Translations under genes and position numbers: made by a program
Shown: piece after piece, positions 17,039 to 46,400 of the stretch
Layout of the letters: every line of letters starts with the position of its first letter
How positions within the stretch are numbered: position 1 is the stretch's first letter
The notes under the pieces: model-generated
What the model was told of the DNA's origin: nothing
What the model saw: the letters and a program-made list of their open reading frames with translations, nothing else
The model's database searches: none
Virus record (IMG/VR): IMGVR_UViG_3300030451_004176
Location: 1 to 56,253 of that record
Source of the DNA: a virus
Lineage: Duplodnaviria > Caudoviricetes
Strand: one strand, 5' to 3'
DNA: 56,253 bases

Positions 17039-17045
17039 ATAAACA

Positions 17046-18977: not shown

Positions 18978-18998
18978 AACAATTAAATTAATTTTAAA

Positions 18999-23078: not shown

Positions 23079-23477
23079 ATGAAAGAGAAGGAGATCAAAT
23101 TTATAGAGAACCTTAATAAAAGATTCAATAAGTATTTAGTACCATCTGAAGATGATTTCGATGTGTATGATGCATACAACGAAAACTCGATTCTGGAAAT
23201 AAAGATAAGAGATAAAGCATATGACACTAAATTTCTACAAGTAGACAAATGCTTTCAACTCTTAATGGTAGGTGAAGCAAATAAGAAAAGACCATTTTAT
23301 GTGGTCAGTGATCCTGAAGGTATATATGTGTACGACCTATTTGATCTGAAAGAAAATTTGCTAAAGAAACCAATCCATAAAATAAAATGTCCTTACAGAA
23401 CGGAATTTGCAAATAATATTTTTGTAGAGAAATATTTTTATGAATTAACAAAAGAAGAAGGGAGGTATTTTAAGTGA
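23079..23477 (+). CDS. putative PD-(D/E)XK nuclease
   Basis: YDAY....LEIKIR motif. Confidence 0.55.
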   Translation: MKEKEIKFIENLNKRFNKYLVPSEDDFDVYDAYNENSILEIKIRDKAYDTKFLQVDKCFQLLMVGEANKKRPFYVVSDPEGIYVYDLFDLKENLLKKPIHKIKCPYRTEFANNIFVEKYFYELTKEEGRYFK

Positions 23478-23642
23478 AAAAAAGATCATTAAACGAGTAT
23501 CGACAATCAAAAGATTACGGTTATAAAAATCCAAAACGTAAGAAACTATCAATCAAAGAGTTATGTAAGATGTATCCGAACAATGCTGATTTGGGAGCTG
23601 CAATAAGAGAAATGTTTTTATAATTTTCATAACTTTGTTTTT

Positions 23643-23891
23643 ATGAAAGAATCTGAGATTCAGAATAAAAGAATAAAAGAATTAGAGCAGAAGGGATATT
23701 ACGTAATCAAATTAAAATTAACTAACAAAAACGGGATACCAGATATATTAGCTATTCCGAAGGGATCAAATGTTTTGTTCTCTGAAATAAAAAAACCTGG
23801 TAAAAAATTATCTGGACTTCAAAAGTTTAGATTGCAAGAGCTAGAACGTTATGGATTTAGAACAGAAGTATACACAGGAGATGATCTATGA
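23643..23891 (+). CDS. VRR-NUC nuclease / Holliday junction resolvase-like
   Basis: ESEIQ...GIPDIL...FSEIKKPG..LS.LQ; TAACTTTG box at 23630-23637. Confidence 0.85.
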   Translation: MKESEIQNKRIKELEQKGYYVIKLKLTNKNGIPDILAIPKGSNVLFSEIKKPGKKLSGLQKFRLQELERYGFRTEVYTGDDL

Positions 23892-24282
23892 AGTAGAGGA
23901 CTACTTTATGAAAAAACTACAAAATGATTTTCAGCTAGATGTTTCTTTAAAAATAGCTGAATTAATTAATCAAACTGTGCACCAAATAAAACCAAACTCA
24001 AAAGTAGTAGAAGGTCACGATGATTTAAAAACAGCTTTACAAGAAGATATATATACGGTAGATTATTATGGAGGTGTTATCCACACTGAAAAAATTCCTA
24101 CCTTTTTTGAGTTGGAGGTAGAAACTTTACTTACAGAAGACCAGCCTCTTGTTGCTTTAATAGATATAAAAGAAGTGGAATGTGATAGATACTTAGATTT
24201 AATCAACAAAAAAAAATATCTAAATGAATCAATTAAATATAATAAAACAGAAGATAGAAGAGTTATACGATCTCAATCTTGA
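23881..24282 (+). CDS. hypothetical protein
   Basis: Start probably the ATG at 23881; acidic ~133 aa. Confidence 0.6.
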   Translation: MIYEVEDYFMKKLQNDFQLDVSLKIAELINQTVHQIKPNSKVVEGHDDLKTALQEDIYTVDYYGGVIHTEKIPTFFELEVETLLTEDQPLVALIDIKEVECDRYLDLINKKKYLNESIKYNKTEDRRVIRSQS

Positions 24283-24598
24283 AAAAAAAACTCGAAAAAG
24301 AGAATACGTAGAGGCAAGAAGTTTATTTTGTAAAATCTGTAGAGACACACTCAATGTTACTTTTCAACAAATAGGAAATGTTATCAATAAAAACCACGCC
24401 ACAGCAGTTTATTATAAAAAAACTATAGAAAACTTAATGACATACGATAAGGATATCGTAAATAATTACAATGAAATTTTACAAAAACTGCATTTGGAAG
24501 AAGAAAATTTTGATCATCTTGACAAAGATGAACTAAAAACCTTAATAAAAAGTTTGAAAAAAGAAAATAAATTATTAAAATTACAACTACAAAAATGA
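24224..24598 (+). CDS. DnaA domain IV-like HTH protein with coiled-coil tail
   Basis: KTRKREYVEARSLF...TFQQIG..INKNHATAVY. Confidence 0.75.
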   Translation: MNQLNIIKQKIEELYDLNLEKKTRKREYVEARSLFCKICRDTLNVTFQQIGNVINKNHATAVYYKKTIENLMTYDKDIVNNYNEILQKLHLEEENFDHLDKDELKTLIKSLKKENKLLKLQLQK

Positions 24599-24837
24599 GA
24601 GAATTGCCCTACACTTACGATGACATAGAAAAAATAATGAACTTTTCTTCTTGGTCTAATCGAGAAAAGATTGACGAGATGTTAAGAATTGATTGTAATT
24701 TATATGCTCATTTAGGAAAAGACTCCACCAAAACAGACAAAGAAAATGTAAAGAAAAAATCTCGTAATATATATAGATCTATTAAAGCCATAGATCATTC
24801 AATGGGCGAGAGTTTTTTACAGGCTATGGATAAGTAA
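24595..24837 (+). CDS. hypothetical protein
   Basis: 80 aa, ATGA overlap with the previous gene. Confidence 0.7.
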   Translation: MRELPYTYDDIEKIMNFSSWSNREKIDEMLRIDCNLYAHLGKDSTKTDKENVKKKSRNIYRSIKAIDHSMGESFLQAMDK

Positions 24838-24987
24838 AATGAATCAACACGTGACCTACGTTAACTTCGTTATGAAACAGATTAACGATTGCACTGATGC
24901 AATATATGAAGATCTTATGGATCAAGAACAGGTGGAGGTCAACAAACATTGTGATAAATTAATTAAACTTTTGCGAGACATTAAAGA

Positions 24988-25362
24988 ATGAAAGTCTGCA
25001 ACACTTGTCGCAAAAAAAAACCACTTGATCATTATTGGTCAGCAGGAATTAAAAACGGCAAGAAGTATTACAGAGCTAAATGTAAAGAGTGTTACAACAA
25101 AGTAAAAGCTCATCTTAGATATCGTAACAGAGACTGGCTCACATCTTACAAGGAGGACTTGTCGTGTTGCAAGTGTGGGTATTCTAAAAAGACTCACCCA
25201 ACCTTTAGCACCAGGGCTTTAGAGTTTCATCATAGAGAAGACAACAAAGAGTTCGAGGTAAGCAATGGTGTTCACAGCGGATTATCAATAAGCACTATCC
25301 AAGCAGAAATTGACAAATGCATTGTGGTATGCTCAAGATGTCATATGGAGATCCACTCTTAA
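24988..25362 (+). CDS. HNH endonuclease with Zn fingers
   Basis: CNTC..CKEC..CCKCG..LEFHH..KC.VVCSRCHMEIH. Confidence 0.85.
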   Translation: MKVCNTCRKKKPLDHYWSAGIKNGKKYYRAKCKECYNKVKAHLRYRNRDWLTSYKEDLSCCKCGYSKKTHPTFSTRALEFHHREDNKEFEVSNGVHSGLSISTIQAEIDKCIVVCSRCHMEIHS

Positions 25363-28300
25363 TTTTTGAATCTCATAAAATCTACTAAATCTACACCATT
25401 AAAATCTAATGTATCTACTGCATTTCTATACTCTTCTTCTGTCATTTTTAATGTGGCTAATCTTTTCTTTAAAGCTTCTCTGGCAGTCATTTTACTCTCT
25501 GGTGCCATTGGTATTCTTAATTTTTGACCTTTATAAAACTCATAAAATTTATCCAATTTTAACTTTTTTCTTCTAGCGTCAGACATTTTAGACACTTCAC
25601 TGTATAAAGAATTATAGAATTTTTTAGTAAGTTTTGTTTTTACATCTCTTGGTGCGTTTGAAATAATTTCTTGTTGTTCTTTTGCATTAAAACCTTTATC
25701 TGTTAATATTTGTAGAGCTTCTTTTTCAGGAACACCTCCAGCTTCAACCAAAGCTTTGTAATCTTTATGAAGCTCATTAACCATTTCTTTATACTTTTCA
25801 TTTTGATTAGTGAACTCTTCTTGAAAATCTCTAAATCTTAAAAATACTGAAGATCCTTTTATATCAGTTGGGAAAATATTTTTTAAATAACCATCCTCCC
25901 CTACAAATTGATCAAAGTTTTCAGCAAAATCATCTATTAAAACATCAAAGTTTTTTTCTAAATAATCATCAATATTATCATACCCTTCTTGCTGTAACCC
26001 TCTTTCTATAAAACTGCTGGCTGCATCTTCTATGTCTTTTTTTCTTCCACCATATTCAAACTTTCCAGCTTTATATCCAAATTGTTTTCTCATATCCACT
26101 TCAAATGGTTTAACGCCAGTCATTGATATAGCAATATCTTTAAACCCTTGATCTTTAGCTTTTTCTGCAAACTTTATAAAACCAGGTAGTATTTTTCTTT
26201 TTACATAATCAATTATAGCGTCCATTTTGACATCATCACTTGCTTCAGGTTCATATATATTTCCTCCATAATCACTTTGATTATTTATTACATTTGATAT
26301 TGTTCGAGCTAATATATCTCCTGATAAAAAGTTTTCTGCTCCACCCACTTTTAACATTTCAATTGTGTTTTGAACAATGTCTTTTTCAGGATCCCAAGCG
26401 TTCATCATTTTTATAGATGGTCCAAAAGGATTAGATGCTGTTGCATCTATATATTTATAAACACCATTTTCAATACTTAAAGGAATTATATCTGAATTTT
26501 CTTGCCAAGAAAATGTATATCTTTTAGATTGATCAAACTTGGCTTTTCCTTCTGGGGTGTTTCTATCCATATCTTCATCTTCTTGTGAAGATCCAACTAT
26601 AGCAGCAACTCCTGCAGTAGCAGCTGATATACCTGCTAATCTTTTTAACCCTATTGCTTTTATCATAGGATTAGGATCAGATATTTCTTGATAAGCTAAT
26701 TTTAAATTTTTTAATTGAATCCTAAAAGACTCATAGGTAAATGATAAGAAAGGAGAAGCTACAGGAACTGTCTTAAATCTTCTCACAAAATCAGAAATTT
26801 TAGAATAATTAGGATATATATCTTTTATTATGTCAGCTGCTTTTTTATTTATAATTTTCTTTTCTTCAGCATTTAATTTATTATAAGGTTTACCGTACTC
26901 CGCCAAAGAATATTGACCAGCTTCATTAAAGAATCCATATATTTTCCAAAAATTATCTCCAGCTTCATAAGTTTTTTTAGGAAATCCTTTAATTGCATTT
27001 ATCATTCTAGATGAAAAAGTATTTTTTTCGTTAGCAGAATCTAATAAAATATCTTCAGGAGATTTTTGTAATAAATCTTCAACCATTTCTAATCTAACAC
27101 TAGAATTTATTACACCTTCTTTTATTAAATAATTATATATATCTCTTCCATCTTTTTGAAATGTTTTAACAACATCTGGAAGTTTTAACAAATTAATATG
27201 ACCATTGTTAGCAGCTATCAAAGTGTTACCTGTAAAATTAATAGCTTGAGTTGTAGGAGATAGCACAGTTAATCCATACTTGTAATAACCTACCGATTTT
27301 TGCCACCCTCTAATTAAATTATCTTTTAACTTTTCAAACTCTGCCTTTTCTTTTATACCAGATAAATCAGGCTCGTTTAATTCGTAAGCCATTCCTTCAT
27401 TAGAATAATAAGTTTTTCCACCTACAATAAACACATTGTTATGACTTCCATCTGGATGTGCTTTTATAGCATCTTCTTGAGATTCAAATATCACATTTGT
27501 TTTTAACCCTAAATCAATAACATCTTTAATAGCTTTCATTGAAGCTACTTTTGCCGATTGAGATTGAATGGTTTGTGCAAATTGTTGTACGGCATCACCG
27601 TACTGCCCCATTAACATTCTTATTTTTAAAGGAACTCTCTTTTTTGATTTTTGTTTTACAGGATTCTTAATTCCTTTTTCTAGAATTTCTTTACCATTTT
27701 TAGAGGTATACGCTTCTATATCTCTTCTAGTGTTTTCTGCAGCTAACTCTGGGCTTTGCCCTTGCTCTATGTATTTATTAAATATATCCTGTGCTGCATT
27801 TGATAAAACATCATCTGTTACTTTTTTATACCAGTTTTTATCATTGAAAACCTGGTAACTTCTTTTTAAATAAGATCCTAAGTTTTCTTCCATTATATTG
27901 ATGGTTTCTTCATCAATCATACCTAGTGTTCTATTTAATTCAATAATATCTTTTGTGTTTTTATCAATTATAGATCTCAATTCCACACTAGCTTGAAACA
28001 CATCATCAGGCATAGATTCTGGAGTTAGTTGATCAAGTATTTTTAATTTTTCAAAAGCATCAATGGTTTCTAATCTGTCTTCTAGATTAGCTATTTTAGA
28101 ATCAATACCATCTTTTTGTTTTTGAGCTTGTTTAGATTTAGGATCTATTTCTGTTTTAGCTTTTTCTAAATCACTTATTTGATTTTCGATACTATTTTTT
28201 TCATTTTCTAAATCATTTATTACTTCTTCTTTAGTCTTAGAGCCTTCAAAAAATTCTTTTGGTACTAAGCCATTTAAGTATGCTTGAGAAGCAATTTTTG

Positions 28301-31300
28301 CTTCATTTTTATCTGATTCATTTTTTATTTTTCTTACAGCTGTATTGTAATCATTTATAGCATCAACACCTTGTTGAGATATGTAACTTCTATAACTTAT
28401 TTCAGAATCTACAATATTTTTAAATGCTTGAGGTAAAAATCTTTTACTAGTTAAAAGAACTCTATTTAAATACTCTATGGTTTCTTTAAAGTCTTTTGGT
28501 GTTGGGTTACCAGCTTTGTCTCTTCCCATAAACCAATTGTTTATTTTTCGGAATATGGATGTAAAATCAAATCCTGCTTTTTTTATTTCTTCTTCCTTTT
28601 CGATATCAGACTCCCGTACTTCTTCTTCCACTTCTTGTATACCTTCGGTTGGTTGAGCATCAAGTATATCTCCTGTTTCTTGCTTTTGAATGGCATAATT
28701 ATTAATTTTAGTTAGTAATTCATCTGCTTTAATATCTCTGTCTGTACTAATGTCAATATCTAAATCAGGTATTAATTCAGAAATTTGACTCAACTCCTCT
28801 AAGGTTAAGTTATTATCTCTAGACACAGCATAAGCAGCAATCTTTCTTGCTTCTATAATGCCGTCTTCTAGAGTTTCTTCTACCTCTTCCACTTCTTCTA
28901 CCTCTTCCACTTCTTCTACCTCTTCTGGTTTTTGTTGAGTTTCTTTGTCTTGGAGAGCTCTTTCTTTTAAAGCAGATACTTCTTTTTCAGATTGGTCAAT
29001 TATATCATCTATTTCTTGTTGCTTTGCTTTTATTAACCCATCGTACCCTCTTTGCATTCTTTTATTAGTAGCATTAGATTTTTGTTCTTCCAGCTTATTA
29101 AGCTCTAATATTTTTCTTGCAATGTCTGATTTCTGTTCTGGATCTAACCCAGGATAGGCGTTAGTTTGTTCGTAGGCATTTTTAATATCCTCAATGCGTT
29201 GCATTATATCGTTAGCCTCATCAGCAGTTAATTCTCCTTTTGCAATTTCTACTTTTAACTTAGTTTCAAAACCTTGTTTTATATCTTCGTCTTCAGCAAT
29301 AATTAAAGCCGCAGCTATTTGTTCATCTGTCGCTATGTCTGACGGACCATTTTGAGCTAGAGTAACTGCAGTGCTTACGATACCACCCGCTGCAAAACCT
29401 AAGCTACCTTCTAAAGCGGTGTCTTTCCAAAACTGTTTAGTAGATGGATTAAACTGTTCGCTTTCAGTAAACAACTCTCCTTCAGTGTTGCCTGCCAGCT
29501 TTTCCATTTCATTCAATATTTCCTGAAGCCCTTTTTGAGTCCACCCCTGTGATATTTCTGTAACAGCTTCTCCAGTTGCTCCAGTAAAAAGTTTTGCAAC
29601 TTTGTAAGGATTGCTAAATATTTCTTCAATGTGTCTAAAAAATCCACGTAAGGTAGATTTCTTTCCAGCATCCATAAAGTATTTTTTTAAAAGCTTTTCT
29701 AATACAGCACCTATTTTACCAGTAGAAAATTTAAGACCTAATCTGTCTAAATAAAAAATAGCAATACCAACTGCTGTTTTTAAAGCTAACTTGTGACTTT
29801 CTGGAATATCATCAAATAAAGGATCTGTATCCATTCTTTCTGACAACCTTTCATAAACCATTGCTGCAGAAGAAGCAGGTAATGCATTCATCATAATACC
29901 CGCAGCTGATGGTCCTAATACTAGAAAAGCAGCCGTAATGTTTCCAGCTAATTCATCAAGAACAGTTAATAACTGTCTTCCCCAATTGCCTTGTCTTCTT
30001 ATAGCTTCTATTTTTTCTTTTGGTATATCTCCTTCCAGTCCTAAAAAATCTCTTAAATCATCTGCATCTTTTCGTATTTGATTTCTTTGATCTTCATCTA
30101 ACCCGCCAAAGGGAGTCTGAAGTAAATCCAACATATGTATGTAAGCACCAAGCAAAGGATCTTGAATAGCGTCTATAAAAATTTGCGTCCAATATGCGTA
30201 TTCATCAGACAAGTTCATTTCATATGGACCTGTTTCAATTTGATACTTTCTATAGTACTCTATTTTTTGAGCAATCAAAGCAGTGGATTCATCTTGAAGC
30301 TCATCCATCACCTCTGCTTTAGCAATAATTTTTCTGCTAGTTTCTTCAATTTCTTCTTGCAGTTTCAGGTAATCATCAGCAGCTTGGTTTATTTCTTCAA
30401 ACGTTGAGTTAGGATCTCCAACAATTTTTTTTAATTCTTCTGCTTGTGTTGTTTGATCTTCTAGTTTTTTAATGTAATCTTCTCTTAAATCAAGTAGTTC
30501 TTTTTCTAATTGTACAATGTTTTTTCTAATTGCTTTTATCTCCTCTAAGTCTATTTGCTCATCTACTTCACTTCTTACTTTTTGTATTTCTGTTCTTTCT
30601 GAACGAGCATTTTTTTCAATGAATTTTTTTAACTTCTCTTTTTCCTTTTTTATTTTTCTTCTTTGCTTTTCAGGTTTTATTGGTTTTAAAGCTAAATCTC
30701 CATCTCCTCCACCTGTAAATATTTTCCCTATAGGACCCAAATCAACATCGGTTCTGGCTATATTTAAATCAATTGTTATTTCATCCGTTACATTACCATC
30801 TTCATCAACCGCCTTTACAATCATTGAGTCTCCAATACCTGATTGCTCCGCTTCAATACCATAGTCATTATAAATAGAGTTTACAAATGGAACTGAGTCT
30901 TCTTCATCACTGGTTATTATCTGATCTCCAATAGGTGTATCCAAAACTTTTGTGGGGGCTTCACCTGATTCTGTTTCATCAAAAGCTTTGTCAATTTCAG
31001 CTGTACTATATCTAGTGGTTATGTCTGAGTCAGGGTGTAATCTACGATGGGAATTTACTTTTTCTTTAAACTCATCTTTCTTTACTTCTTTGTCTACTCT
31101 TTTCGTTTCTTCTAATACTGTTTTCTGCAGCTCTGTAGGTTCCTTTCCTTCTGCAGTAGGTAATACTATAGACTCCTCAATGACAACTTCTTTTTCATTT
31201 CCTTCTGGGTCGGTGTATGTAGCTTTAACTACATCTTTCATTTCTTCAACTTCACTAACGTCTTTATAAAGCTCTAACTGTTGTTTCTTATCTTCTCTTC

Positions 31301-32339
31301 TGACTATTTGTTGTTGTAACCCTGGATCTGTATTTGGATCTTTTCCTAATGCTGTTTCATTTTCTATAACTACATCTAAGTCTTCAATTTCTTTTTCCAG
31401 TTCTTGTATTTCTTGACTAGTTGTTTTACCTGTTTCTGTTTCTGGGTCAATAGCAGTAGGTACACTAAAATCCCCTGTAGTTGTTTTACCTGTCTTTTCT
31501 TGTGTCTTGGTAACAACTACTACTTCATCTAACAATATACCATCAAAAGATGGGTCTTGCTCTTTGATTTTGTCTAAGACTTTTTGTTGATCTTCATCTT
31601 TTAATTCAGATGGTTTGGTAGGTGTATTTTGATCTATCTCAAAAATTGTTTTTCGATCATCTGCCTCTGCGTCTGGAGTTGGTGTTGGTGCTGGGGCTGC
31701 TGGAGGAGGTGTTTTTGTAATTTCCTCTTTTAAAGATTCTTGAGCAGCTTCATAGTTTTCTTTGTAGTATATCCCGCTTTTAGCAAATATTTCTCCACCT
31801 GGGGACTTAGATGCTCTTTTTAAATCATTTCGGGCTTTTCGATTAGTGGTTTTATATGAATACTTACCTATGTCATATCCAATTCCTTTAAATTTTACAT
31901 TCGTAGGAATATATCCTTTCTCAGCTTGTTCAAAAGTAATACCTTCTACGTCTGGGTCTAAGCCAGTTATTCGTTTATACTTCTCTTTCCATTTATCATC
32001 TGTGGGTTGTTGAGCAGCAGGTGGTTGTTGAGCAGCAGGTGGTTGTTGAGCAGCAGGGGAAGAAGCTTCTTCATCATTATCAACGGGAGAAGGTGGTTCA
32101 ACCTCCGTTGGAGAAGGCTCCGATGAGGTAGGCTCTTGATTTTCCACGATAGTGGATTCCATACTTTCCTCTGGAGAAATAGAAGTTGAATCTTTTTTTT
32201 TTAAAACAGATTTTTTTATTGACTCTAATTCTTCTACTCCGTCAATATCATCAAACCTTTCTAGTAAGTCTTGATTACTTACATCAGAATTATCTTGTAA
32301 TACTTTAGTAACTCTTCTTAATGTTTTTTCACTTGCCAT
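25359..32339 (-). CDS. large internal virion / DNA ejection protein
   Basis: 2326 aa, helical; last gene of the podovirus-type core block; acidic low-complexity N-terminus. Confidence 0.65.
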   Translation of the reverse strand: MASEKTLRRVTKVLQDNSDVSNQDLLERFDDIDGVEELESIKKSVLKKKDSTSISPEESMESTIVENQEPTSSEPSPTEVEPPSPVDNDEEASSPAAQQPPAAQQPPAAQQPTDDKWKEKYKRITGLDPDVEGITFEQAEKGYIPTNVKFKGIGYDIGKYSYKTTNRKARNDLKRASKSPGGEIFAKSGIYYKENYEAAQESLKEEITKTPPPAAPAPTPTPDAEADDRKTIFEIDQNTPTKPSELKDEDQQKVLDKIKEQDPSFDGILLDEVVVVTKTQEKTGKTTTGDFSVPTAIDPETETGKTTSQEIQELEKEIEDLDVVIENETALGKDPNTDPGLQQQIVRREDKKQQLELYKDVSEVEEMKDVVKATYTDPEGNEKEVVIEESIVLPTAEGKEPTELQKTVLEETKRVDKEVKKDEFKEKVNSHRRLHPDSDITTRYSTAEIDKAFDETESGEAPTKVLDTPIGDQIITSDEEDSVPFVNSIYNDYGIEAEQSGIGDSMIVKAVDEDGNVTDEITIDLNIARTDVDLGPIGKIFTGGGDGDLALKPIKPEKQRRKIKKEKEKLKKFIEKNARSERTEIQKVRSEVDEQIDLEEIKAIRKNIVQLEKELLDLREDYIKKLEDQTTQAEELKKIVGDPNSTFEEINQAADDYLKLQEEIEETSRKIIAKAEVMDELQDESTALIAQKIEYYRKYQIETGPYEMNLSDEYAYWTQIFIDAIQDPLLGAYIHMLDLLQTPFGGLDEDQRNQIRKDADDLRDFLGLEGDIPKEKIEAIRRQGNWGRQLLTVLDELAGNITAAFLVLGPSAAGIMMNALPASSAAMVYERLSERMDTDPLFDDIPESHKLALKTAVGIAIFYLDRLGLKFSTGKIGAVLEKLLKKYFMDAGKKSTLRGFFRHIEEIFSNPYKVAKLFTGATGEAVTEISQGWTQKGLQEILNEMEKLAGNTEGELFTESEQFNPSTKQFWKDTALEGSLGFAAGGIVSTAVTLAQNGPSDIATDEQIAAALIIAEDEDIKQGFETKLKVEIAKGELTADEANDIMQRIEDIKNAYEQTNAYPGLDPEQKSDIARKILELNKLEEQKSNATNKRMQRGYDGLIKAKQQEIDDIIDQSEKEVSALKERALQDKETQQKPEEVEEVEEVEEVEEVEETLEDGIIEARKIAAYAVSRDNNLTLEELSQISELIPDLDIDISTDRDIKADELLTKINNYAIQKQETGDILDAQPTEGIQEVEEEVRESDIEKEEEIKKAGFDFTSIFRKINNWFMGRDKAGNPTPKDFKETIEYLNRVLLTSKRFLPQAFKNIVDSEISYRSYISQQGVDAINDYNTAVRKIKNESDKNEAKIASQAYLNGLVPKEFFEGSKTKEEVINDLENEKNSIENQISDLEKAKTEIDPKSKQAQKQKDGIDSKIANLEDRLETIDAFEKLKILDQLTPESMPDDVFQASVELRSIIDKNTKDIIELNRTLGMIDEETINIMEENLGSYLKRSYQVFNDKNWYKKVTDDVLSNAAQDIFNKYIEQGQSPELAAENTRRDIEAYTSKNGKEILEKGIKNPVKQKSKKRVPLKIRMLMGQYGDAVQQFAQTIQSQSAKVASMKAIKDVIDLGLKTNVIFESQEDAIKAHPDGSHNNVFIVGGKTYYSNEGMAYELNEPDLSGIKEKAEFEKLKDNLIRGWQKSVGYYKYGLTVLSPTTQAINFTGNTLIAANNGHINLLKLPDVVKTFQKDGRDIYNYLIKEGVINSSVRLEMVEDLLQKSPEDILLDSANEKNTFSSRMINAIKGFPKKTYEAGDNFWKIYGFFNEAGQYSLAEYGKPYNKLNAEEKKIINKKAADIIKDIYPNYSKISDFVRRFKTVPVASPFLSFTYESFRIQLKNLKLAYQEISDPNPMIKAIGLKRLAGISAATAGVAAIVGSSQEDEDMDRNTPEGKAKFDQSKRYTFSWQENSDIIPLSIENGVYKYIDATASNPFGPSIKMMNAWDPEKDIVQNTIEMLKVGGAENFLSGDILARTISNVINNQSDYGGNIYEPEASDDVKMDAIIDYVKRKILPGFIKFAEKAKDQGFKDIAISMTGVKPFEVDMRKQFGYKAGKFEYGGRKKDIEDAASSFIERGLQQEGYDNIDDYLEKNFDVLIDDFAENFDQFVGEDGYLKNIFPTDIKGSSVFLRFRDFQEEFTNQNEKYKEMVNELHKDYKALVEAGGVPEKEALQILTDKGFNAKEQQEIISNAPRDVKTKLTKKFYNSLYSEVSKMSDARRKKLKLDKFYEFYKGQKLRIPMAPESKMTAREALKKRLATLKMTEEEYRNAVDTLDFNGVDLVDFMRFKN
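28875..28925. repeat. 18-bp tandem repeat encoding EEV repeats
   Basis: ttcttctacctcttccac x ~2.8. Confidence 0.85.
32005..32057. repeat. 18-bp tandem repeat encoding PAAQQP x3
   Basis: ggttgttgagcagcaggt x ~3. Confidence 0.9.
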
Positions 32340-38500: not shown

Positions 38501-40407
38501 ATATATATAAGACCAATATCAAAATCTCTGTTACTATGTAAACTTTTTTTATCAGAAAGACCATTTATTGTGAAAAACGGAGGTGATGAAGCCTGATACC
38601 TAACACCTTCAAAAGAAAAAACTCCACCTGCACTCCCTGGTGTGCTGTAATAAACAGGCATAGGAAGTTGCATTGTTATTTTGTTTGTATCGTTATTTGG
38701 AGGTGCAACAGTAGTTATTTTAAAACCTGTTTGTCCAACAGGATAACTTGGAGGCGATACAGAAGTTCCATCTTGACATCCTGAAGGGTTGTTGGGCGAT
38801 GCAAAATTAGCAGCTGAGTTTACGGGAGTTGCAGCAGAACTTGTTACCGTGTTCTCAGCCGGATTAACTAAAGACCCATTATTTATAAAATCTGTAACTG
38901 TAGCTGGAGAAGCACTTGCCGCACTAGTAAAAGAAATAAAAGATTTTGTAGGTGCAATATTAGCTGGGCCAATTCCAAAAGCTCTTTCAAACTCATTACT
39001 ATTAAAGAAGTCATATGCGTTGGCATAAGAATCATTTATATAAAAAGAAAATCCAACGTTTGCTATAACTGGATTTGATCTAGTTACATTTAGATTTAAA
39101 ACTGCAGCATTATCATTAACTACTTCTGACTGTAATCCAGAAACAATAGAACAACTAAATGTAATTAAAGTTCCAGCTGTAAACTGAACTCCTGTAAAAT
39201 CAAAAGTAGCTTCAGTGTCACTAATAGTGTTTGTTACTCCAGGATTACCCATTAAGTAGTCAGAGTCTGTTATTGTCCCTACAATACTTGAAGAAGAAGA
39301 TGTATTTGTTAATTGAGTTTCTTGACTAGGTTGAAAAAGCTCTGAAGTAAAATTAATATTTATATCGTTTCCATCAGAGTCTTTTATATCATATCCATCT
39401 ACATAGTTACCATACATCAATCTATTAGACTGAAAAGTCTGAGCTTTAGCGAATCTAGGAACATTGTCAAAAAGTCTTAATATTTCTGAAGTAGCTAATA
39501 TGTTTTTAATCTTCTTATCCTTAAATAAAATACTTTGTGTGGCATTATTTACCCACCCATTGTCAGCTTTATTGTAACTGTCTATAACTTTTATAACATC
39601 ATTATTAGAATCTTTAAAACAAAGCTCTATATCTGTAACTCTTTTATCCCCAGTATTAAACTGAAGAGTTAAAGAGTTAAATTTATTTTGCATTGAATTA
39701 TTTAAAGATGTAGCAAAATCAAAATCAAATTCATCTTGAGGTCTGAACGCAGGAGAAGTAAACTGTGATAGAGCACTGTACTCACCATCTAAATATCGGT
39801 ATCTGTAGGCAAAACAAAGAAAATTATCAAAAACATAACCTTCTTCTAAAGGAGGAGATTGTGTTAAAATAACAGTAGGTTTTTCTGAAGGTGGTTTTAC
39901 AATGACAGATAAGTCGTTTTCTACAATAGTGTCAATACCACCGGTAGGTAAACCATAAGTTCTTTTTACGTTTATTTTTCTAGGTGGATTATAATCGTCT
40001 GTCCAAAAAAGTAAATCACCAATTAAGTTAACACCAGTTATATGGTAAGTTTTATTGAAGTTTAAAATACTAACAGACACAACGTGGTATATTATATTTC
40101 CTGTTACTACATTATAAGAAACAATTAAATCACCATTAATTGGGTCATTAATAAACCAGTATATATTGTTATCTATTTGATCAGCATAACTACCAATGCA
40201 AACTGCATTAGAAGATAAGGCTGTTCCCTGAAAGTTAATGTCAGTTAGTTTTTCGTTTCCTTTTGCTTTTTCTAATGAACCAACTTCTGAAACTGCTGTA
40301 GACCCAGTACGTAAATTTAAAGCATCAATGTATTCTCCTGGAGCTAAAATCCTTTCATCATCGGACTTATTCATTACGCCCTTTAAAAAAGTACTTACTG
40401 CCTTCAT
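35524..40407 (-). CDS. tail nozzle / stabilization protein
   Basis: MNKSDDER...GEYIDALN, LLFWTD.YNPPRKIN, FAYRYRY.DGEYSA, RLMYGNY, YGISKNPES. Confidence 0.8.
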   Translation of the reverse strand: MKAVSTFLKGVMNKSDDERILAPGEYIDALNLRTGSTAVSEVGSLEKAKGNEKLTDINFQGTALSSNAVCIGSYADQIDNNIYWFINDPINGDLIVSYNVVTGNIIYHVVSVSILNFNKTYHITGVNLIGDLLFWTDDYNPPRKINVKRTYGLPTGGIDTIVENDLSVIVKPPSEKPTVILTQSPPLEEGYVFDNFLCFAYRYRYLDGEYSALSQFTSPAFRPQDEFDFDFATSLNNSMQNKFNSLTLQFNTGDKRVTDIELCFKDSNNDVIKVIDSYNKADNGWVNNATQSILFKDKKIKNILATSEILRLFDNVPRFAKAQTFQSNRLMYGNYVDGYDIKDSDGNDININFTSELFQPSQETQLTNTSSSSSIVGTITDSDYLMGNPGVTNTISDTEATFDFTGVQFTAGTLITFSCSIVSGLQSEVVNDNAAVLNLNVTRSNPVIANVGFSFYINDSYANAYDFFNSNEFERAFGIGPANIAPTKSFISFTSAASASPATVTDFINNGSLVNPAENTVTSSAATPVNSAANFASPNNPSGCQDGTSVSPPSYPVGQTGFKITTVAPPNNDTNKITMQLPMPVYYSTPGSAGGVFSFEGVRYQASSPPFFTINGLSDKKSLHSNRDFDIGLIYMDEYNRSSTPLLSNNSSFKVPASNSVIQNKAKTTIPPSMNPPSWAKKYKFAIKPSGLEYDTIYAVRAYEDNDENQFFWCLLEGEQAAKVTEGQILIAKNDGNSPKSNYEEVVVVTKSTQPNVTSTPNPPAGVYIKLKRTTTYDPLGVGFESVTVEGVESQQGSSLSAQYANLCLDLSPMLTGPWATGIIPVGTYITIDVLYEREKADTYLFTACKEVGYQHLKITKRANKNYNVTTGTSSQNFRTNLSQMITDQFVSGINNEFPVLNISYGPNSEPEFPIKFIGESIQTPSVLKPAGDYHVISLNPLNSPGTPAIGFRCNYQACVSAVSPIQLDFAPSKVSASITIEEQVSQPLVFETEPVESNPNFFFEGEESYEIINNKHQGNFQNQFDWSFADNGQNNAYRTAVGLTASTNGYGNNVVFTDNSIFGGSNTPHSYTVGDTVIINQNLPFTHTAYQGEHTVVEVPDVYTICIELAFAGSTPVQPGTANSPAIVINEFYDCFTFRNGVESIRILDSIKKQNFTIGNRVYGVSDEEFKEADRGASITYSGLFNLEGNINRLNSFNLGTLNFKDLDNRYGDIQILDGRKSDLLTLQENKISYVLAEKTQLLNSDGSANVSASTNVLGTQIARVEEYGISKNPESYVQYGIGKYFTDSSRGAVIELRGDSYSNEQLSVASNFGLRSWFRDLFIEYPNTQKIGAYDPFIDEYVLSSNEINLPQEIKLYNCGNILTFTTRKDNVNYILDYGTGIGSGSLGYDISAGEITLNVTYDGITATTGAITGSGTLNFTKDKASVEEANVEVVVSNPTVTPATFQLTNTCINAAEFAVVLVTVYNPSDAGKQITNKFRWSNAEPYSSPLYSDTIIFETDIIPGKTAGNYVAQYEIISGQEGVNMIPTTGLVTGSVSSVVDVITSKETSDTYDFDPTSNRQMYFWSNILYQNNPSNINALLTAANNITTVSPTSTGVYSGSFNFNPSAPPPSLNYLYIIYDYFS

Positions 40408-41341: not shown

Positions 41342-42066
41342 TAAGTTTCAGTTTGAGTGTTTAATATTTCCGAAGCGTTTGCGTCAGCTACAATCTCTTG
41401 CTCTCTTATAGATAAACCACTATATTTTAATATTCTAGTTACCAATTCAGCATAGTCCGACATTGGTAATTCAAAGTCTTGATAGTCAGGTTGTGATTGG
41501 TCAAATATTGGCTCTCCTAAAGTAAGGGTATTAAACGTCCATTTAGGGTCTTTAGGATATCTAATATATTGTAGCGTTAAGTTCCCTACTATAGTGTTGG
41601 GATAAACTCTTAATGAATTAGATAAGTTTGAAGCAGGTGATGGAGTAGGTTGAAAAACGTAAGCTGGAAACTCAGTAGAAGGAGCAGTTAGTAATGAAGA
41701 GTTTAATAAATTTATTTTAGACTCATTTACTCTTTCGACTATTGTACTTCCATTTAATAAATCCAATAACGTGTACCAGTCATTAGGAAGCGGATATACA
41801 CCTCCAGCTTGAGCAATACTAATTTGCATAGTAAAAGTGTCTATAACTTCTGCTAATTGCTTTTTAAGATCAGCTAAACCACTGCCAGACAATCTGCCTA
41901 ATCTATTGTTTTCTTTGTTTATTTGTCTATTGTAACCATAAAAATATTGTTCGAATATGTCTAGTTGAGCTTGTTTTGCAAACAAGTTAAAATCAGAGGG
42001 TGAAATATATCCGTAATTATTTTTATTTAAAATAGATAATACTGTGTTTCTTACTTCATTGATCAT
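41341..42066 (-). CDS. head-tail adaptor (tail tubular A-like)
   Basis: LNKNNYGYISP.DFN..A..AQ, YIRYPKDPKW, DFELP motifs. Confidence 0.7.
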   Translation of the reverse strand: MINEVRNTVLSILNKNNYGYISPSDFNLFAKQAQLDIFEQYFYGYNRQINKENNRLGRLSGSGLADLKKQLAEVIDTFTMQISIAQAGGVYPLPNDWYTLLDLLNGSTIVERVNESKINLLNSSLLTAPSTEFPAYVFQPTPSPASNLSNSLRVYPNTIVGNLTLQYIRYPKDPKWTFNTLTLGEPIFDQSQPDYQDFELPMSDYAELVTRILKYSGLSIREQEIVADANASEILNTQTET

Positions 42067-42082
42067 CTAATTCTCTTTTTTA

Positions 42083-42123
42083 CAAAGATAAACAAAAAAA
42101 AAGAGCACTCATAAAGTGCTCTT
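42083..42123 (-). terminator. terminator followed immediately by a TATCTTTG promoter box
   Basis: AAGAGCACT-TTATG-AGTGCTCTT plus T run; box at 42083-42090. Confidence 0.8.
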
Positions 42124-42144
42124 GTAGATAAAGTAAATGTAAAA

Positions 42145-42651
42145 TTATCCTATAGATATTCCAATAACTCTAAATGGATCAATTGTAATATCGTGAGCAA
42201 CGTCTTTCCAATGTGTTTGTAAAGCAGTTACAACAAAATCTTCTATTTGATCTCTTACATATTCGCTTCCAGCTGCCACAGGAGTATGAACTAAAGTGAC
42301 TACATCAACAGCTGCTACATCATCATAAGTGATAGTAACGGTAGATGTACTAGCTTGCTCAATTAAACCAATGTTTCCACAGGAAACTAATTGATTATTA
42401 CTAAGAGTGTCTGAGTGAATAAAATATGCTTTAGAAGTGGGAACTGTAGTTCCTACAGATAAAACTGTTTGGCTGTCTACAGCGGTAACAGTGGTGTATG
42501 TGTTGTCAGTAGAGTTGTGAACTATATCACCTACTTGAACATTATCAGTGACAAAAGTAGCACTACTATCTGTTAGCTTGTTAGCTGTTCCAGAAGTAGT
42601 AGTTCCATTGGCTAATAATTTGAATACAGGTACGCTTAAAAACTTTTCCAT
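42145..42651 (-). CDS. virion protein, paralog of 42663..42962 with inserted beta domain
   Basis: Both share KFLS.PV, NQLVS, L.H..VA.GSE..RD...D.VV.ALQ..W.DV. Confidence 0.75.
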   Translation of the reverse strand: MEKFLSVPVFKLLANGTTTSGTANKLTDSSATFVTDNVQVGDIVHNSTDNTYTTVTAVDSQTVLSVGTTVPTSKAYFIHSDTLSNNQLVSCGNIGLIEQASTSTVTITYDDVAAVDVVTLVHTPVAAGSEYVRDQIEDFVVTALQTHWKDVAHDITIDPFRVIGISIG

Positions 42652-42662
42652 AATTGTAAAAA

Positions 42663-42962
42663 TTAAGCAATTACAATAGCACTTACTGCTTTCGGTAGTT
42701 TACCGACTACTTTTACAACGTCTCTCCAAGGTTGTTGTAAAGCTAATACAACTTCATCTTGAAGCAAATCTCTCATCTCTTCACTTCCTGACGCAACTGT
42801 TGCGTGAGTAAGAGTGATTTTTTTGCCTCCTCCATAAAAAATAGTAACATTGTCTAAAGGATCAGATCCTGAAGCATCTCCTACTTCGATCAACTTAACA
42901 TCTGATGCAGAAACCAACTGGTTTTGCTCACCTGTTACGGGTATACTTAAAAACTTTTGCAT
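42663..42962 (-). CDS. putative capsid decoration protein
   Basis: Start reassigned to MQKFLSIPV, downstream of the TACCTTTG box at 42994-43001. Confidence 0.7.
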   Translation of the reverse strand: MQKFLSIPVTGEQNQLVSASDVKLIEVGDASGSDPLDNVTIFYGGGKKITLTHATVASGSEEMRDLLQDEVVLALQQPWRDVVKVVGKLPKAVSAIVIA

Positions 42963-43002
42963 AGTTAAAAAAATTAAGTGGGTTAATAAAAAACAAAGGT
43001 AA

Positions 43003-43079
43003 TAAAAAAACCCCACTATAAGAAGTGGGGCTTTGACTTAGGATAAGTGTTGAGTGATTATAAACAAACAATTAAATTA
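43003..43079 (-). ncRNA. candidate ~75-nt small RNA
   Basis: TATATTTG box at 43083-43090, no ATG-started ORF, CCCCACT/AGTGGGG hairpin plus T7. Confidence 0.5.
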
Positions 43080-43097
43080 CCACAAATATAATAATTT

Positions 43098-43832
43098 TTA
43101 TTTTAACATTTTGATTAATGCTTCATATATTTCTACATTATTTTCTTTTTTGAAAAAATCAGCTAACACTGTAGAAGGAGTTTCACCAAAAGGAATACTA
43201 CATAATTTAGTTTTTTTAGATTTTAAATTATAGTAAATTTCTTTATCATTGTTTCTGGTCTTTAATAAAGATTGACCAAACATTTTATCAATATTATCAA
43301 ATAAATCCAAGTCTGGATCTTCTAATGCATTTAAAAAGTCCTCTGGATTATTTCTCGCAAATAACAAAACATCTCTTTTTATTTCTGAAGAAGCTGCTAT
43401 TCTAGTGTCTACATTTAAATACACTCTAGCTAAAGATTCCATTTTATCAAAACTTAGTCCTGCGGCTTCTTGTTGTGCTTTAGCTTCTAATTCTAAATAC
43501 TGCACCTCTTCTTGAGCATCTTTCTCTCTATCTATTTCCTCAAAAATCTGTCCGTTTGCAGGGTGATAATACAAAAACTCTTGCAATACTGGATTTGTTT
43601 TTGGAACAAACAACATACCATCTTCAAAAACCACTGGCTCTAAAACTGAAGTGGCATCTTGCTCATCTTCAAAAGGTGATTTTTGATTTGAAGCATACCT
43701 AAGTGGTCTACTTGTTGTTCCATCAAAATGTAAAAGGGGTTTTCTTCGACTGTTTCTTGAGTTAAGAGTATAACTCAAAGGCTTTACATTATTACGTAGC
43801 CTATATGTTCTATCTTTTATTTCTTTTTTCAT
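43098..43832 (-). CDS. conserved protein downstream of the major capsid protein
   Basis: Start reassigned to MKKEIKDR; LRYASNQKSPF.DEQ, FEDG.L.V...NP.LQ.FL..HP. Confidence 0.75.
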   Translation of the reverse strand: MKKEIKDRTYRLRNNVKPLSYTLNSRNSRRKPLLHFDGTTSRPLRYASNQKSPFEDEQDATSVLEPVVFEDGMLFVPKTNPVLQEFLYYHPANGQIFEEIDREKDAQEEVQYLELEAKAQQEAAGLSFDKMESLARVYLNVDTRIAASSEIKRDVLLFARNNPEDFLNALEDPDLDLFDNIDKMFGQSLLKTRNNDKEIYYNLKSKKTKLCSIPFGETPSTVLADFFKKENNVEIYEALIKMLK

Positions 43833-43852
43833 TATATTAAATTTGATTAAAT

Positions 43853-43884
43853 TAAAAAAAGGGGGGCTAAAACACCCCCCTCTT
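43853..43884 (-). terminator. terminator after the major capsid gene
   Basis: GGGGGG-TGTTTTAG-CCCCCC plus T7 on the minus strand. Confidence 0.8.
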
Positions 43885-43893
43885 AAGTTACTA

Positions 43894-45315
43894 TTACTTA
43901 AATAACAAGAAGTTATTTGCACCCATAGTACAAAGTGCTCTTTCAGATAAGAAGTTAACAGTCATAACATCTTTATCGCTAGTAGCAGCACCACCAGCAG
44001 ATCCAGTTATCCACGACTTATATCTTCTATCTTCAGTTTCTGACGCTCTATATCTTACGTGTAAGAATGGTCTTTTAGCATTTCTACCTAATACTTGATC
44101 GTAAACATTAGTTGAACCAGCAGGTACTAATACACCTTCAACAGCTCCACCAACTAAACCACCTCGCATAGTAGGATCGTTTAGATATTTCCAATCTGAT
44201 TTGTAGAAATCATAACCTCTTCGGAATCCAGTAAATCCTAGGTTAAGTGCCATTTCTTCGTCATTGTCAAACAATCCGTAAGAAGTACCACCTGCACCGT
44301 AAGAGTTCTGAGCAGCTAACATATCATCAATAGCAAATGAAGTAGATCTATTTAAGAAAAGTACATTCTCTTCAATAGCTCCTTGCTTATCTAATCTTTC
44401 AACGATATCGTCAAAATCAGCTAATGCAGCTAAAGCTCCAGTCCAAACGTTTCCTCTTTGCTCTATAGCGTGGAAAAGACCTTCTGAACCTTTGAAAGAA
44501 TCTCCAATAGCTCCTGATGCAGCTTCTGCAGGAACAGCTTCGATCATTGCTGATTCTAAATAATCATCAAATCTCATTCTTGTTTCGTGCTCTGCTTTTA
44601 AATACCAAAGGTATCCATCAGCACCATCTTCAGTAGATACTTCGATCCACCCGATTTGTGCCATATCAGATCCATTTACTTCATAAGTATCTTTTAAGAT
44701 AATAGGATTGTTTTCTAAAATAGTGTCAAATGGCTCAAGAGATCCTGACATTCCATTTTGACCTTTTTTAAATTCAGATCCATAAATCCAAACAGTTACT
44801 TTTTCATTTGCATCAACTCCAGTACCAACACCAGTATATCCACCACCTTCGTAAAACTTAACAGTGAAAGTAGTAGCAGTAACAGCAGTTACGATACCTT
44901 TGTTAGAAATACCAGCGAAACCTGTGTTACCAGAAATCATAACTGTATTCCCTATTCTAATAGCAATATTAGAGGCATCAGCAGGATTAAATACCTGGTT
45001 AGCAGGAATCAAAACATCAGCTACAGTAAAAGTAGCAGTGTCGTCAGCAGCAGCAGCTGGTGTAGATACGCTTGTATATTTAATATGCAATCTTCCTTGC
45101 TCCGCCCATTTGATAAGGTCAGAGTTAGAAGGCATTTCAGCTCCCGTCATTCGAAGGAAACCGCTTATTGTTCTATTGCCATATCTTTCAAACTCCTTTT
45201 CATAGGTGTCAGGAAGATATTGGTTTAAGAAATTAAAATTGGCTAAGTAGTTAGTAGCACTAGGTACTTTAGTAGCACTAGGCTGTAACGCAAAGCCAGG
45301 TACATTTAAACTCAT
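43894..45315 (-). CDS. major capsid protein
   Basis: After portal and scaffold, followed by a terminator; W.EQGRLH, GSDMAQIGW.E, LNLGF.GFRRGYDFYK motifs. Confidence 0.88.
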   Translation of the reverse strand: MSLNVPGFALQPSATKVPSATNYLANFNFLNQYLPDTYEKEFERYGNRTISGFLRMTGAEMPSNSDLIKWAEQGRLHIKYTSVSTPAAAADDTATFTVADVLIPANQVFNPADASNIAIRIGNTVMISGNTGFAGISNKGIVTAVTATTFTVKFYEGGGYTGVGTGVDANEKVTVWIYGSEFKKGQNGMSGSLEPFDTILENNPIILKDTYEVNGSDMAQIGWIEVSTEDGADGYLWYLKAEHETRMRFDDYLESAMIEAVPAEAASGAIGDSFKGSEGLFHAIEQRGNVWTGALAALADFDDIVERLDKQGAIEENVLFLNRSTSFAIDDMLAAQNSYGAGGTSYGLFDNDEEMALNLGFTGFRRGYDFYKSDWKYLNDPTMRGGLVGGAVEGVLVPAGSTNVYDQVLGRNAKRPFLHVRYRASETEDRRYKSWITGSAGGAATSDKDVMTVNFLSERALCTMGANNFLLFK

Positions 45316-45326
45316 TTTTTATGTTT

Positions 45327-46400
45327 TTATTTTCGGTTTGACTTTATTACTAAACCTCGCCTTGAGGTCGGAGTCACCGCTTTAATTTTGAGCCCTTGTT
45401 TTACTGTGGTTTCTGGAGCAGATCTCATCTTCAAATCAATGTTTTTCATTTTTTTATTTTGATTATCTAATGCTTCACTTTTCCCTGCATCATAGAAAAA
45501 CTTTGCAAACTTATCAGGGTTCATAGCTAAAGCTAATGACCGGTGATATCCACTTACATCAGAAAGTTCTCCTTGATCATTAGTAAATTTGTTTAAAAAA
45601 TTACCAATGTCAGATTGAGATTTCATTAGTTCATTTCTATCTCCTGGAGTAAAAACATAATCCTTGTCTTCAATTTTGAACTTAAAACCTTTAAACTCTT
45701 CTCCGAAAAGATTGGTTGTTTTGTTTTTAAAACTTTCTGATCTTTTTTTAAGTAGTTCAGAATTTTTTAAATTCTCCTCTTTATATTCTAAAAAAGCTTT
45801 GTAGTCATCTGAAGATTTAAAAGAAGTTTCTTCTGTTGACTCAACAGGAGATTTATACTTACTTTTTTGGTCTTCAAAATACTTCAATGCTTTTGAAAGC
45901 TCTTTTTTCTTTTCAATGCCTTTTTGTTTTATAGCATATTCTGAATCAACATTTTCATCAGCTCTAAATTTAGAATCAATTAAAAACTTAATTTCTTCGT
46001 TATCTAATTCTGGCTCTTGTTCAGCATAATATTTAAATAAAACACTTTCTGGATCTTCCTGAGAGTAATCTTTATTTAAAGCCATAAAATCATCGTATCC
46101 TCTACCGGTTTCTTTTTTATAGTCTAAATAAGCTTTTATGTCTCCAGGCAATTCTTCATTGTTGTTTTTTTGATCCATAAGGTCATTTAAAGAATTAATC
46201 TCTTTATCGTACCTTTCTTTAATAAATGAAAGAACTTGTTCTTCTCCCAATTCAGGAGTAGTGTTTTCTACTACTACTTCCTCTTTTGGTTCTTCTATTT
46301 TTTCTTCTACCTGTTCTTCGTGTTTTTGAAGTAACTCTTCTTCCACTTGTTGAACAGATTTTTGTGGAACATCTTCCACGGCTTTTACTTTAATTTCCAT
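45327..46400 (-). CDS. capsid scaffolding protein
   Basis: Acidic helical protein between portal and capsid; TAACTTTG box at 46418-46425. Confidence 0.7.
   Translation of the reverse strand: MEIKVKAVEDVPQKSVQQVEEELLQKHEEQVEEKIEEPKEEVVVENTTPELGEEQVLSFIKERYDKEINSLNDLMDQKNNNEELPGDIKAYLDYKKETGRGYDDFMALNKDYSQEDPESVLFKYYAEQEPELDNEEIKFLIDSKFRADENVDSEYAIKQKGIEKKKELSKALKYFEDQKSKYKSPVESTEETSFKSSDDYKAFLEYKEENLKNSELLKKRSESFKNKTTNLFGEEFKGFKFKIEDKDYVFTPGDRNELMKSQSDIGNFLNKFTNDQGELSDVSGYHRSLALAMNPDKFAKFFYDAGKSEALDNQNKKMKNIDLKMRSAPETTVKQGLKIKAVTPTSRRGLVIKSNRK

Follow-up and report, generated by a model that had tools for sequence, protein, structure and literature searches.

DapZ and MicL are type I small RNAs (sRNAs) of enterobacteria, derived from 3′ untranslated regions (3′ UTRs); they are chromosomal, depend on Hfq and act on targets that contain Shine-Dalgarno sequences. 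Here we describe a candidate RNA of comparable build in a phage: a predicted ~75-nt non-coding RNA at 43004-43078 on the minus strand of the IMG/VR virus record IMGVR_UViG_3300030451_004176, a linear record of 56,253 bases (93% complete) that was analysed as a whole and is called the window below. Like DapZ and MicL, this RNA would have its own promoter at or after the end of the upstream gene (gene X), would share that gene's terminator, and would use a single-stranded 5′ seed to pair with translation initiation regions (TIRs). Unlike them, the unit lies in a virulent-type phage of a phylum that does not use Shine-Dalgarno sequences, the Bacteroidota, and its putative targets are the phage's own early genes. 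"Early" (the plus-strand block) and "late" (minus-strand genes) are labels given here by strand and gene content only. We propose, at a probability of roughly 0.38, that the predicted RNA is an anti-leader sRNA whose sequence also serves as the end of the gene X 3′ UTR; two properties carry this proposal, the conservation of a promoter-terminator unit that holds no gene and the complementarity of its 5′ part to a set of early leaders.

The c4 antisense RNA of phages P1 and P7 is processed from the same operon, just upstream, and controls one gene in temperate immunity. The candidate recalls c4 as a phage RNA that would act in trans on short sites in TIRs, and in that regulator and target look like diverged copies, here as a prediction. 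It differs in that its partners would be 24-30 kb apart from it and on the opposite strand, in that several early genes share the motif, and in having a promoter and terminator of its own. Lambda OOP and P22 sar are cis-antisense RNAs in phage temporal control. In PAK_P4, 15 of the 17 antisense RNAs (asRNAs) map inside structural genes, and their levels are higher at early stages of infection (PMC5563952). Like OOP, sar and the asRNAs of PAK_P3 and PAK_P4, the candidate is proposed to shape the early/late programme. Those RNAs are encoded opposite their targets and are fully complementary to them, whereas the candidate would be trans-encoded, with its targets 24-30 kb away, partly complementary, and aimed at early genes. 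T4 RegA is a protein translational repressor in the late shut-off of many early mRNAs; as with RegA, a sequence is shared at early initiation regions, but the effector proposed here is an RNA. Lambda pR′-tR′ yields 6S RNA by default, and Q antitermination serves the structural genes downstream. Like pR′-tR′, the unit has a terminator within ~75 nt of its promoter, ahead of structural genes; unlike it, it has no -7-like pause element in the transcribed part and an independent promoter (P2) stands behind the terminator. No antiterminator family was matched among the 10 window proteins scanned. In the Bacteroidota themselves, GibS of B. thetaiotaomicron (PMC7366714) and Rfp18 of F. psychrophilum (PMC9723704) are chromosomal sRNAs. 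The candidate would share with them the base-pairing type, an intrinsic terminator and a phylum with TAnnTTTG promoters, but those RNAs are host-encoded, have metabolic or protease targets, and show no sequence relation to it: at gathering score, Rfam gave no match across the whole window, candidate RNA included.

Anatomy and conservation of the unit

On the minus strand, the stop codon of gene X (43098-43100) is followed by P1, an orphan sigma-A-type -7 box TATATTTG (43083-43090), by 46 unstructured nucleotides free of ATG, by an intrinsic terminator (43004-43034), by the P2 box TACCTTTG (42994-43001) and, 31 nt further on, by the ATG of gene Y. The terminator consists of an 11-pair hairpin (core CCCCACT/AGTGGGG at 43030-43011, extending to 43034-43007) and a T7 run (43004-43010). 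A first-pass annotation of this DNA had already seen a box at 43083-43090 followed by a terminator hairpin (43011-43030 plus T7) with no ATG-started reading frame between them, and a separate box for the next gene, and all of this holds at the coordinates that it gave. Because the sigma-A box of F. psychrophilum occupies -12 to -5 (PMC9723704), we place +1 at 43078, which gives an RNA of 75 nt with its 3′ end within the T-run; the same rule predicts 74-76 nt in 7 relatives. The 5′ end first suggested, 43077, fits the rule to within one base, +1 falling one base earlier. Within the predicted RNA we distinguish a proposed seed, the invariant block AATTGTTTGTTTATAATCAC (43054-43073, RNA nt 6-25, unpaired in the consensus fold), a second conserved island ACTTATC (43042-43048, RNA nt 31-37) and the 16-mer ATTTAATTGTTTGTTT (43062-43077).

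P1 is kept in all 8 distinct unit sequences and in the divergent locus L026. Genome-wide, TAnnTTTG occurs at chance frequency (95 sites, 90.9 ± 9.7 expected), though 17 of the 95 boxes are intergenic and intergenic bases make up 9.1%. An ATG lies 14-31 nt behind nine other minus-strand boxes, and P1 alone has a terminator in place of a gene. From this minus-strand placement, TAnnTTTG looks like a real promoter type here. The 81-nt stretch folds with a minimum free energy of -17.9 kcal/mol (z -3.84), which none of 200 shuffles equalled. RNAalifold, applied to the 8 sequences, gives the terminator hairpin (retained in every one) as the sole consensus structure and leaves the 46 nt at the 5′ end unpaired. 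No other terminator lies between the gene X stop and this hairpin, and the candidate RNA would have the same sequence as the final ~75 nt in the 3′ UTR of gene X; a promoter between the upstream stop and a terminator shared with that mRNA is the arrangement of type I 3′ UTR-derived sRNAs.

Three other products or devices were considered at this site and ruled out. Between P1 and the terminator, where ATG is absent, the only open reading frame (ORF) is a 47-aa TTG frame, and both this frame and an opposite-strand GTG frame are disrupted by a 1-nt indel in relatives L005-L008, which excludes a small peptide; the plus strand at 43003-43097 encodes nothing. An attenuator is excluded by the fold and the consensus fold, which offer no alternative pairing with the terminator arms. 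An RNA hairpin GUGAUU/AAUCAC is excluded as well, its first bases preceding +1 and its window copy being mismatched.

Box and seed have been conserved while the spacer and the four-fold sites of gene X drifted. Gene X four-fold sites are identical to the window at 0.60 in L005, 0.63 in L007, 0.54 in L009 and 0.49 in L010; the box and seed (43085-43057) reach 0.86-0.93, the spacer (43056-43029) 0.47-0.73, and the 3′ arm of the terminator, P2 and the gene Y leader 0.77-1.00. The 20-nt block AATTGTTTGTTT(A)TAATCAC is invariant in the 8 distinct sequences bar one single-base indel, and ACTTATCC is retained in 7 of the 8; the L010 clade carries the seed variant UUACAAUUG. The candidate has in this block a conserved single-stranded seed that outlasts both the four-fold sites and the spacer, and on this comparison the block is under purifying selection. 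Base-pairing sRNAs are usually built in this way, with an unpaired 5′ part and a terminator that are both conserved and a spacer between them that drifts, and this pattern argues against a decaying relic.

It is from this side that we judge one alternative unlikely, namely that the locus is nothing more than an ordinary 3′ UTR and terminator of gene X beside a box left over or present by chance; its complementarity would come from (TTTG)n/(CAAA)n sequence or an old duplication, and any short transcript would have no role. P1 could indeed be a relic isolated by the insertion of a terminator-P2 pair: in L018-L020 and L029, TATATTTG directly 3′ of gene X is the gene Y promoter, and terminators at the site come and go among relatives. 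The chance frequency of the box type, the repeats within the window (see below) and the lack of an Rfam match are also what this explanation would expect. A relic would decay, however, and box and block remain 86-93% identical where four-fold sites have fallen to 49-63% and the spacer drifts; the 20-nt block is invariant in 8 distinct sequences, L026 keeps a divergent version in the same layout beside a gene X only 50% identical, and pairing is better than that of shuffles in three genomes.

The same alignments bear on a further explanation, fairly unlikely in our view, in which the conserved block is a cis-acting signal at P1 and the early-leader match was inherited from a duplicated region and is incidental. 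The signal could be a DNA-binding operator (GTGATT-N13-15-AATCAC), an element of a read-through 5′ UTR of gene Y, or a switch of the lambda pR′-tR′ kind that an antiterminator lets polymerase pass. GTGATT-N13-15-AATCAC does flank the block in most relatives (half-sites in L007-L010 and L062), and the invariant block extends beyond the 16-mer, to TAATCAC; yet conservation is lowest at the 5′ half-site, which reads GTAATT in the window and ATGATT in L005, and under the F. psychrophilum rule the first bases of that half-site precede +1. Read-through gains from the case of gene X, which must be expressed in this way because no TAnnTTTG box lies behind the strong terminator (43857-43884, minus strand) directly 3′ of the capsid gene; judged from this boxless gene, terminators in this phage are probably leaky. 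Read-through from P1 is nevertheless made unnecessary by P2, which stands right behind the terminator and is widely conserved, and no segment is able to pair with a terminator arm as an anti-terminator. The order of promoter, short RNA, terminator and late genes recalls lambda pR′ and 6S RNA, but a TAnnTTTG-like pause element is absent from +1 to +30 and from 43078-43035.

Searching with gene X gave 28 IMG/VR loci, of which 27 were compared (L030, an incomplete locus, was left out). The unit is present in 10 of them, with gene X 75-100% identical, and L026 has its divergent version in the same layout with a different terminator; the other 16 show either stop-terminator-TATCTTTG or a single box directly ahead of gene Y. 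It is absent from genomes G003 and G004 (gene X 66% and 61% identical), and the named phages MW202828, elemoA and phi38:1, with gene X at most 44% identical, have no P1. The pattern AATTGTTTGTTTN{0,1}TAATCAC matched 16 stretches, with one new member (L062) and 5 unrelated; TATATTTGTAGTGNTNTAAT matched 28, the new ones being a coding sequence or other promoters and not the unit. A metagenome scan added 14 loci, 12 of them compared (L085 and L086 being incomplete); 4 have the unit, all identical to known types. The unit is thus specific to one clade of uncultivated relatives. From stop to hairpin the gap is 63 nt in the window, against ~20-27 nt for other late terminators and the three named phages, and by this alignment the unit is extra sequence relative to most relatives, at a gene X/gene Y junction where terminators come and go.

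As a separate observation on the box, TATATTTGTAGTGTTnTAAT recurs in unrelated IMG/VR contigs (L116, L119, L118, L122, L125 and L132), often at intergenic, promoter-like positions, with a leader and ATG behind it in L116 and L119; a TAGTG behind the box may be a context favoured for starts.

Complementarity to early leaders

The 16-mer is exactly complementary to the leader of the GP88 gene (13584-13599, plus strand, positions -16 to -1 of the gene at 13600), whose product matches Pfam GP88 at E 3e-32. Complements of 13 nt, also on the plus strand, end on the A of the ATG at the start of an 83-aa gene (14619-14631) and at the ATG at 14905 (14893-14905), and another covers positions -21 to -9 of the primase/helicase leader (18978-18990); a 16/17 complement lies at the start of a 43-aa gene (18727-18743). 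The exact GP88 match and the three of 13 nt had been reported in the first pass and are all real. A lone 16-mer match is weak evidence, because the window holds 29 exact repeat pairs of at least 16 nt. The earlier warning that low-complexity sequence might match by chance therefore stands for a single site of this length; the stronger point is that pairing with the early TIRs as a set exceeds that of shuffles.

Several comparisons speak for the set. With up to 2 mismatches the 16-mer has 5 matches, where 0.66 are expected, and AAACAAACAATTA, a motif that recurs in early leaders, has the seed as its reverse complement. All of the top nine antisense matches of at least 12 nt lie within 13.2-19.0 kb, most of them abutting start codons, and outside the early block only 3 minus-strand loci, the seed included, match at least 3 early TIRs over at least 11 nt. 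Against 23 early TIRs, the top-5 mean duplex energy of the seed is -14.8 kcal/mol, and shuffles give -9.4 ± 1.2 kcal/mol (0/500 as low). Among 3538 natural late-strand windows, 8 equal the seed's top-5 mean and 13 its overall mean, which ranks it in the top 0.2-0.4% there and in the top 0.2-1.2% across window tests. In each of genomes G000, G001 and G002 that genome's own seed favours opposite-strand over same-strand TIRs (Mann-Whitney p 0.0005-0.0014), a preference that 0/200 shuffles match in any of the three. The complementarity between seed and early leaders exceeds chance, as the first-pass annotation had asked of it in naming shuffled AT-rich controls as the test.

A real sRNA could also have host mRNAs or some other partner as its main target, as a sponge or a protein-binding RNA, with the early-leader matches secondary. 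Anatomy and conservation would be the same as for an anti-leader sRNA, and the invariance of UAAUCAC is unneeded for phage sites of 13-16 nt. Host TIRs could match too, since Bacteroidota leaders are generally A-rich and without a Shine-Dalgarno sequence (PMC6847099). We consider this explanation distinctly improbable: the seed separates early from late phage TIRs, and the extended duplex described next uses both conserved islands and part of UAAUCAC.

The best predicted target of the candidate RNA is the leader and start of an early gene for a 77-aa protein (18375-18406, plus strand, positions -30 to +2), hereafter the 18405 leader. The longest match in the first-pass annotation was the one to GP88, which this leader replaces as best predicted partner. 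The 46-nt 5′ part of the RNA is predicted to pair with the 18405 leader over 27 bp in 4 helices at -25.2 kcal/mol in the window, and both conserved islands take part, in the same order and with similar spacing, ACTTATC facing GATAAGT. The corresponding duplexes reach -23.5 and -23.7 kcal/mol in G001 and G002. G003 and G004, which are without the unit, have an unrelated leader at the homologous gene, and the values there are -12.9, -12.9 and -10.9 kcal/mol for 3 pairs. Of 42 loci with homologues of the 77-aa gene, 41 were compared (L222, without upstream sequence, was left out), and the GATAAGTTGTGAG leader occurs only in those from G001 and G002. The 77-aa protein itself has no Pfam or PHROG match, and its Atlas matches are viral clusters without names.

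The relation between the two loci extends to the DNA. The reverse complement of the RNA is identical to 18375-18406 at 26 of 32 positions, a score reached at the 18405 leader by 0/2000 shuffles and anywhere in the early block by 11/300. Reverse complements of 4 diverged unit variants align to 18360-18406 over 32-48 columns with scores of 33-38, which 0-6 shuffles per 1000 reach. Read on the plus strand, the unit consists of a hairpin, ~11 nt, GATAAGT... and the leader motif, the same order as ahead of 18405. Because of this shared order and the alignment to 18360-18406, we take the unit to be, by inference, an early leader region copied in the opposite orientation, and the complementarity probably arose by that inverted duplication. 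That a gene-less copy has been conserved points, as far as alignments can, to an antisense role.

Two further matches were noted beside these. A second exact 16-mer, AATTTTTATTTTAACA, is common to 43093-43108 (at the gene X stop, beside P1) and to 13367-13382, in a 62-aa early ORF (13305-13493) 200 nt from the GP88 leader site; it is not collinear with the GP88-complementary 16-mer. At 40119-40135 on the minus strand, in a 1627-aa gene, TGGTGATTTAATTGTTT matches the start of the candidate RNA at 16 of 17 positions and exactly matches the GTGATTTAATTGTTT form of relatives L007-L009; this match is coding sequence and probably due to chance.

Proposed mechanism and its difficulties

Based on these findings, we propose the following scheme for the anti-leader sRNA. 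P1 would start transcription at ~43078 and the intrinsic terminator would stop it at ~43004, giving the ~75-nt non-coding RNA; the identical sequence would also end the gene X mRNA as its 3′ UTR. The first ~40 nt, which are unstructured, would read antisense to TIRs of early genes on the opposite strand, which are rich in C and A and have no Shine-Dalgarno sequence, with the widest pairing at the 77-aa gene at 18405 and pairing of 13-16 nt at GP88 and the other early genes that share AAACAAACAATTA. Pairing over -30 to +2 would block loading of the 30S subunit, and early proteins would be shut down when structural-gene transcription is high. The unit would have arisen as an inverted intergenic copy of a hairpin and leader and then been retained by selection. 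P1 firing, accumulation of the RNA, its timing and the repression are steps that we infer, and it is conservation that speaks for a function, whereas the complementarity itself may be inherited.

A set of observations weighs against this scheme. Should the unit be an inverted duplicate, function would not be required to account for the complementarity. The 29 repeat pairs show how far low complexity inflates matches; the duplexes are AU-rich, the 16-mer containing 2 G-C pairs. When 46-nt windows are compared, 17 of 1410 natural ones reach the observed minimum energy and 6 of 1410 the top-5 mean, and the lowest shuffle (-24.8 kcal/mol) comes close to the observed -25.2 kcal/mol. G001 has an identical seed, but its GP88 leader differs and the site is absent, the best site there being a 15/16 match at a gene other than GP88; a 15/16 leader motif also occurs in G003 and G004, which lack the unit. 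Both loci are found together in three closely related genomes, which amount to about one observation. The Bacteroidota are not known to have Hfq, and we know of no RNA chaperone in these hosts. No compensatory change was seen in the 11 terminator pairs across 8 sequences, and the L009, L010 and L026 clades are represented by short contigs only. The complements of two variant seeds were searched for as well, that of L010 matching 28 stretches and that of L026 matching 68; by tblastn with window proteins, all the new contigs lie outside this phage group. No early-leader complement at up to 3 mismatches was found for the G/T-rich gene X 3′ UTR of MW202828. Finally, RNA contigs (from 2 RNA runs among the 24 listed) map only to 43985-44898, in the capsid gene; such contigs cannot show a small RNA, and this mapping is uninformative either way. 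The X10 and X14 contigs tile the region evenly, in a DNA-like manner, and those of X19 and X20 were likewise compared.

The trans-acting sRNA suggested in the first pass is partly supported. An orphan promoter-terminator unit without an ORF, leader complementarity and a seed under apparent selection speak for it; the GP88 site missing in G001 and the leader motif in G003 and G004 speak against it. In its fullest form, which we hold to be somewhat unlikely, the proposal would be that in a virulent-type phage a leader copied in reverse behind a highly transcribed structural gene became an anti-leader RNA, produced from its own host-type promoter and again at the 3′ end of the gene X mRNA, masking the initiation region, free of Shine-Dalgarno sequences, that is common to an early-gene set (the 77-aa gene at 18405, GP88, small ORFs and primase). 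Such an RNA would parallel the protein T4 RegA and would be the first sRNA described from a phage of this phylum.

Genome context and significance

The window has a GC content of 27-40% and no tRNA genes anywhere. A search with its capsid protein matched 85 phage records at identities up to 64%, which by organism include Flavobacterium (68), Cellulophaga (15) and Maribacter (1); since these are mostly Flavobacterium and Cellulophaga, we take it to be the podophage-like genome of an uncultivated marine virus of Bacteroidota. Positions 42000-46000 had no megablast match among phage records. Minus-strand genes fill 1-11619 and 25359-56253, the latter being the structural block, and plus-strand genes (small genes, GP88 and primase/helicase) span ~12570-25362. 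Gene X (43098-43832, minus strand, 244 aa, phrog_34748, no predicted function) lies 3′ of the major capsid gene and its terminator. Gene Y (42663-42962, minus strand, 99 aa, ATG at 42962) and gene Z (168 aa) are paralogues within 42145-42962, starting MQKFLSIPV and MEKFLSVPV and sharing 84% DNA identity over 43 nt at their starts; in L008 and L074 the gene Y position holds a different gene, and several relatives are without both. At the far end of the structural block, 25359-32339 (minus strand) encodes a 2326-aa protein whose only family match is the virion structural protein phrog_22602 (residues 1479-2033), and its gene carries 18-nt tandem repeats at 28875-28925 and 32005-32057.

The early region has features of its own. 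At 12505-12530 and 13255-13272 (plus strand) the motif (T)ACCAACGA lies directly behind near-miss -7 boxes, TATAATTG and TATCTTTA, with long CAAA-rich leaders behind both, and it also precedes the G002 GP88 homologue; these sites are candidate early promoters and appear to differ in type from the TAnnTTTG boxes of the minus strand. A perfect box at the usual distance is absent from all early genes on the plus strand. Leader pieces that are almost identical recur among early genes at 12560-19000 on the plus strand (AAAACAAACAATTATGAA at 14618 and 14892, AATAAAACAAACAATTA at 13580 and 14889, a 21-mer at 16770 and 17029, and AAACAATTATGAAAACA at 14623 and 18735), as if cassettes of a leader and a start had been duplicated several times. 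The leader motif in many relatives sits inside the 3′ end of the upstream gene. In the ORF listed at 14668-15099, the in-frame ATG at 14905 bears the leader motif behind the 83-aa gene (14631-14882), and 14905 is probably the true start. Between the divergent blocks, a gene-poor stretch of ~950 nt (11620-12570) contains AAAAACGTCAC three times, GT-rich runs gtgtgtgcgtgtgtgcg and the 18-mer AAAAAACGTCACTATAGT, which has an inverted copy at 18868-18885 just before the primase gene; this stretch may be an origin or regulatory region.

The literature searched, a 2025 review included, yielded no case of a phage sRNA that acts in trans to silence early genes of the same phage; the term "early gene" does not occur in the review PMC12197685. 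The phage sRNAs described in these sources belong almost without exception to Proteobacteria phages, and they mostly target host genes or work as cis-antisense RNAs. If the anti-leader reading is wrong, the locus still shows that promoter-terminator-promoter arrangements are under strong selection here. The apparent inverted duplication of a leader region would be a simple, testable route to antisense regulators. If the reading is true, a trans-acting RNA would turn off early genes of its own phage as a group, by way of a leader motif that they have in common; this would be new, and it would offer a natural handle on how initiation can be blocked at leaders without a Shine-Dalgarno sequence.

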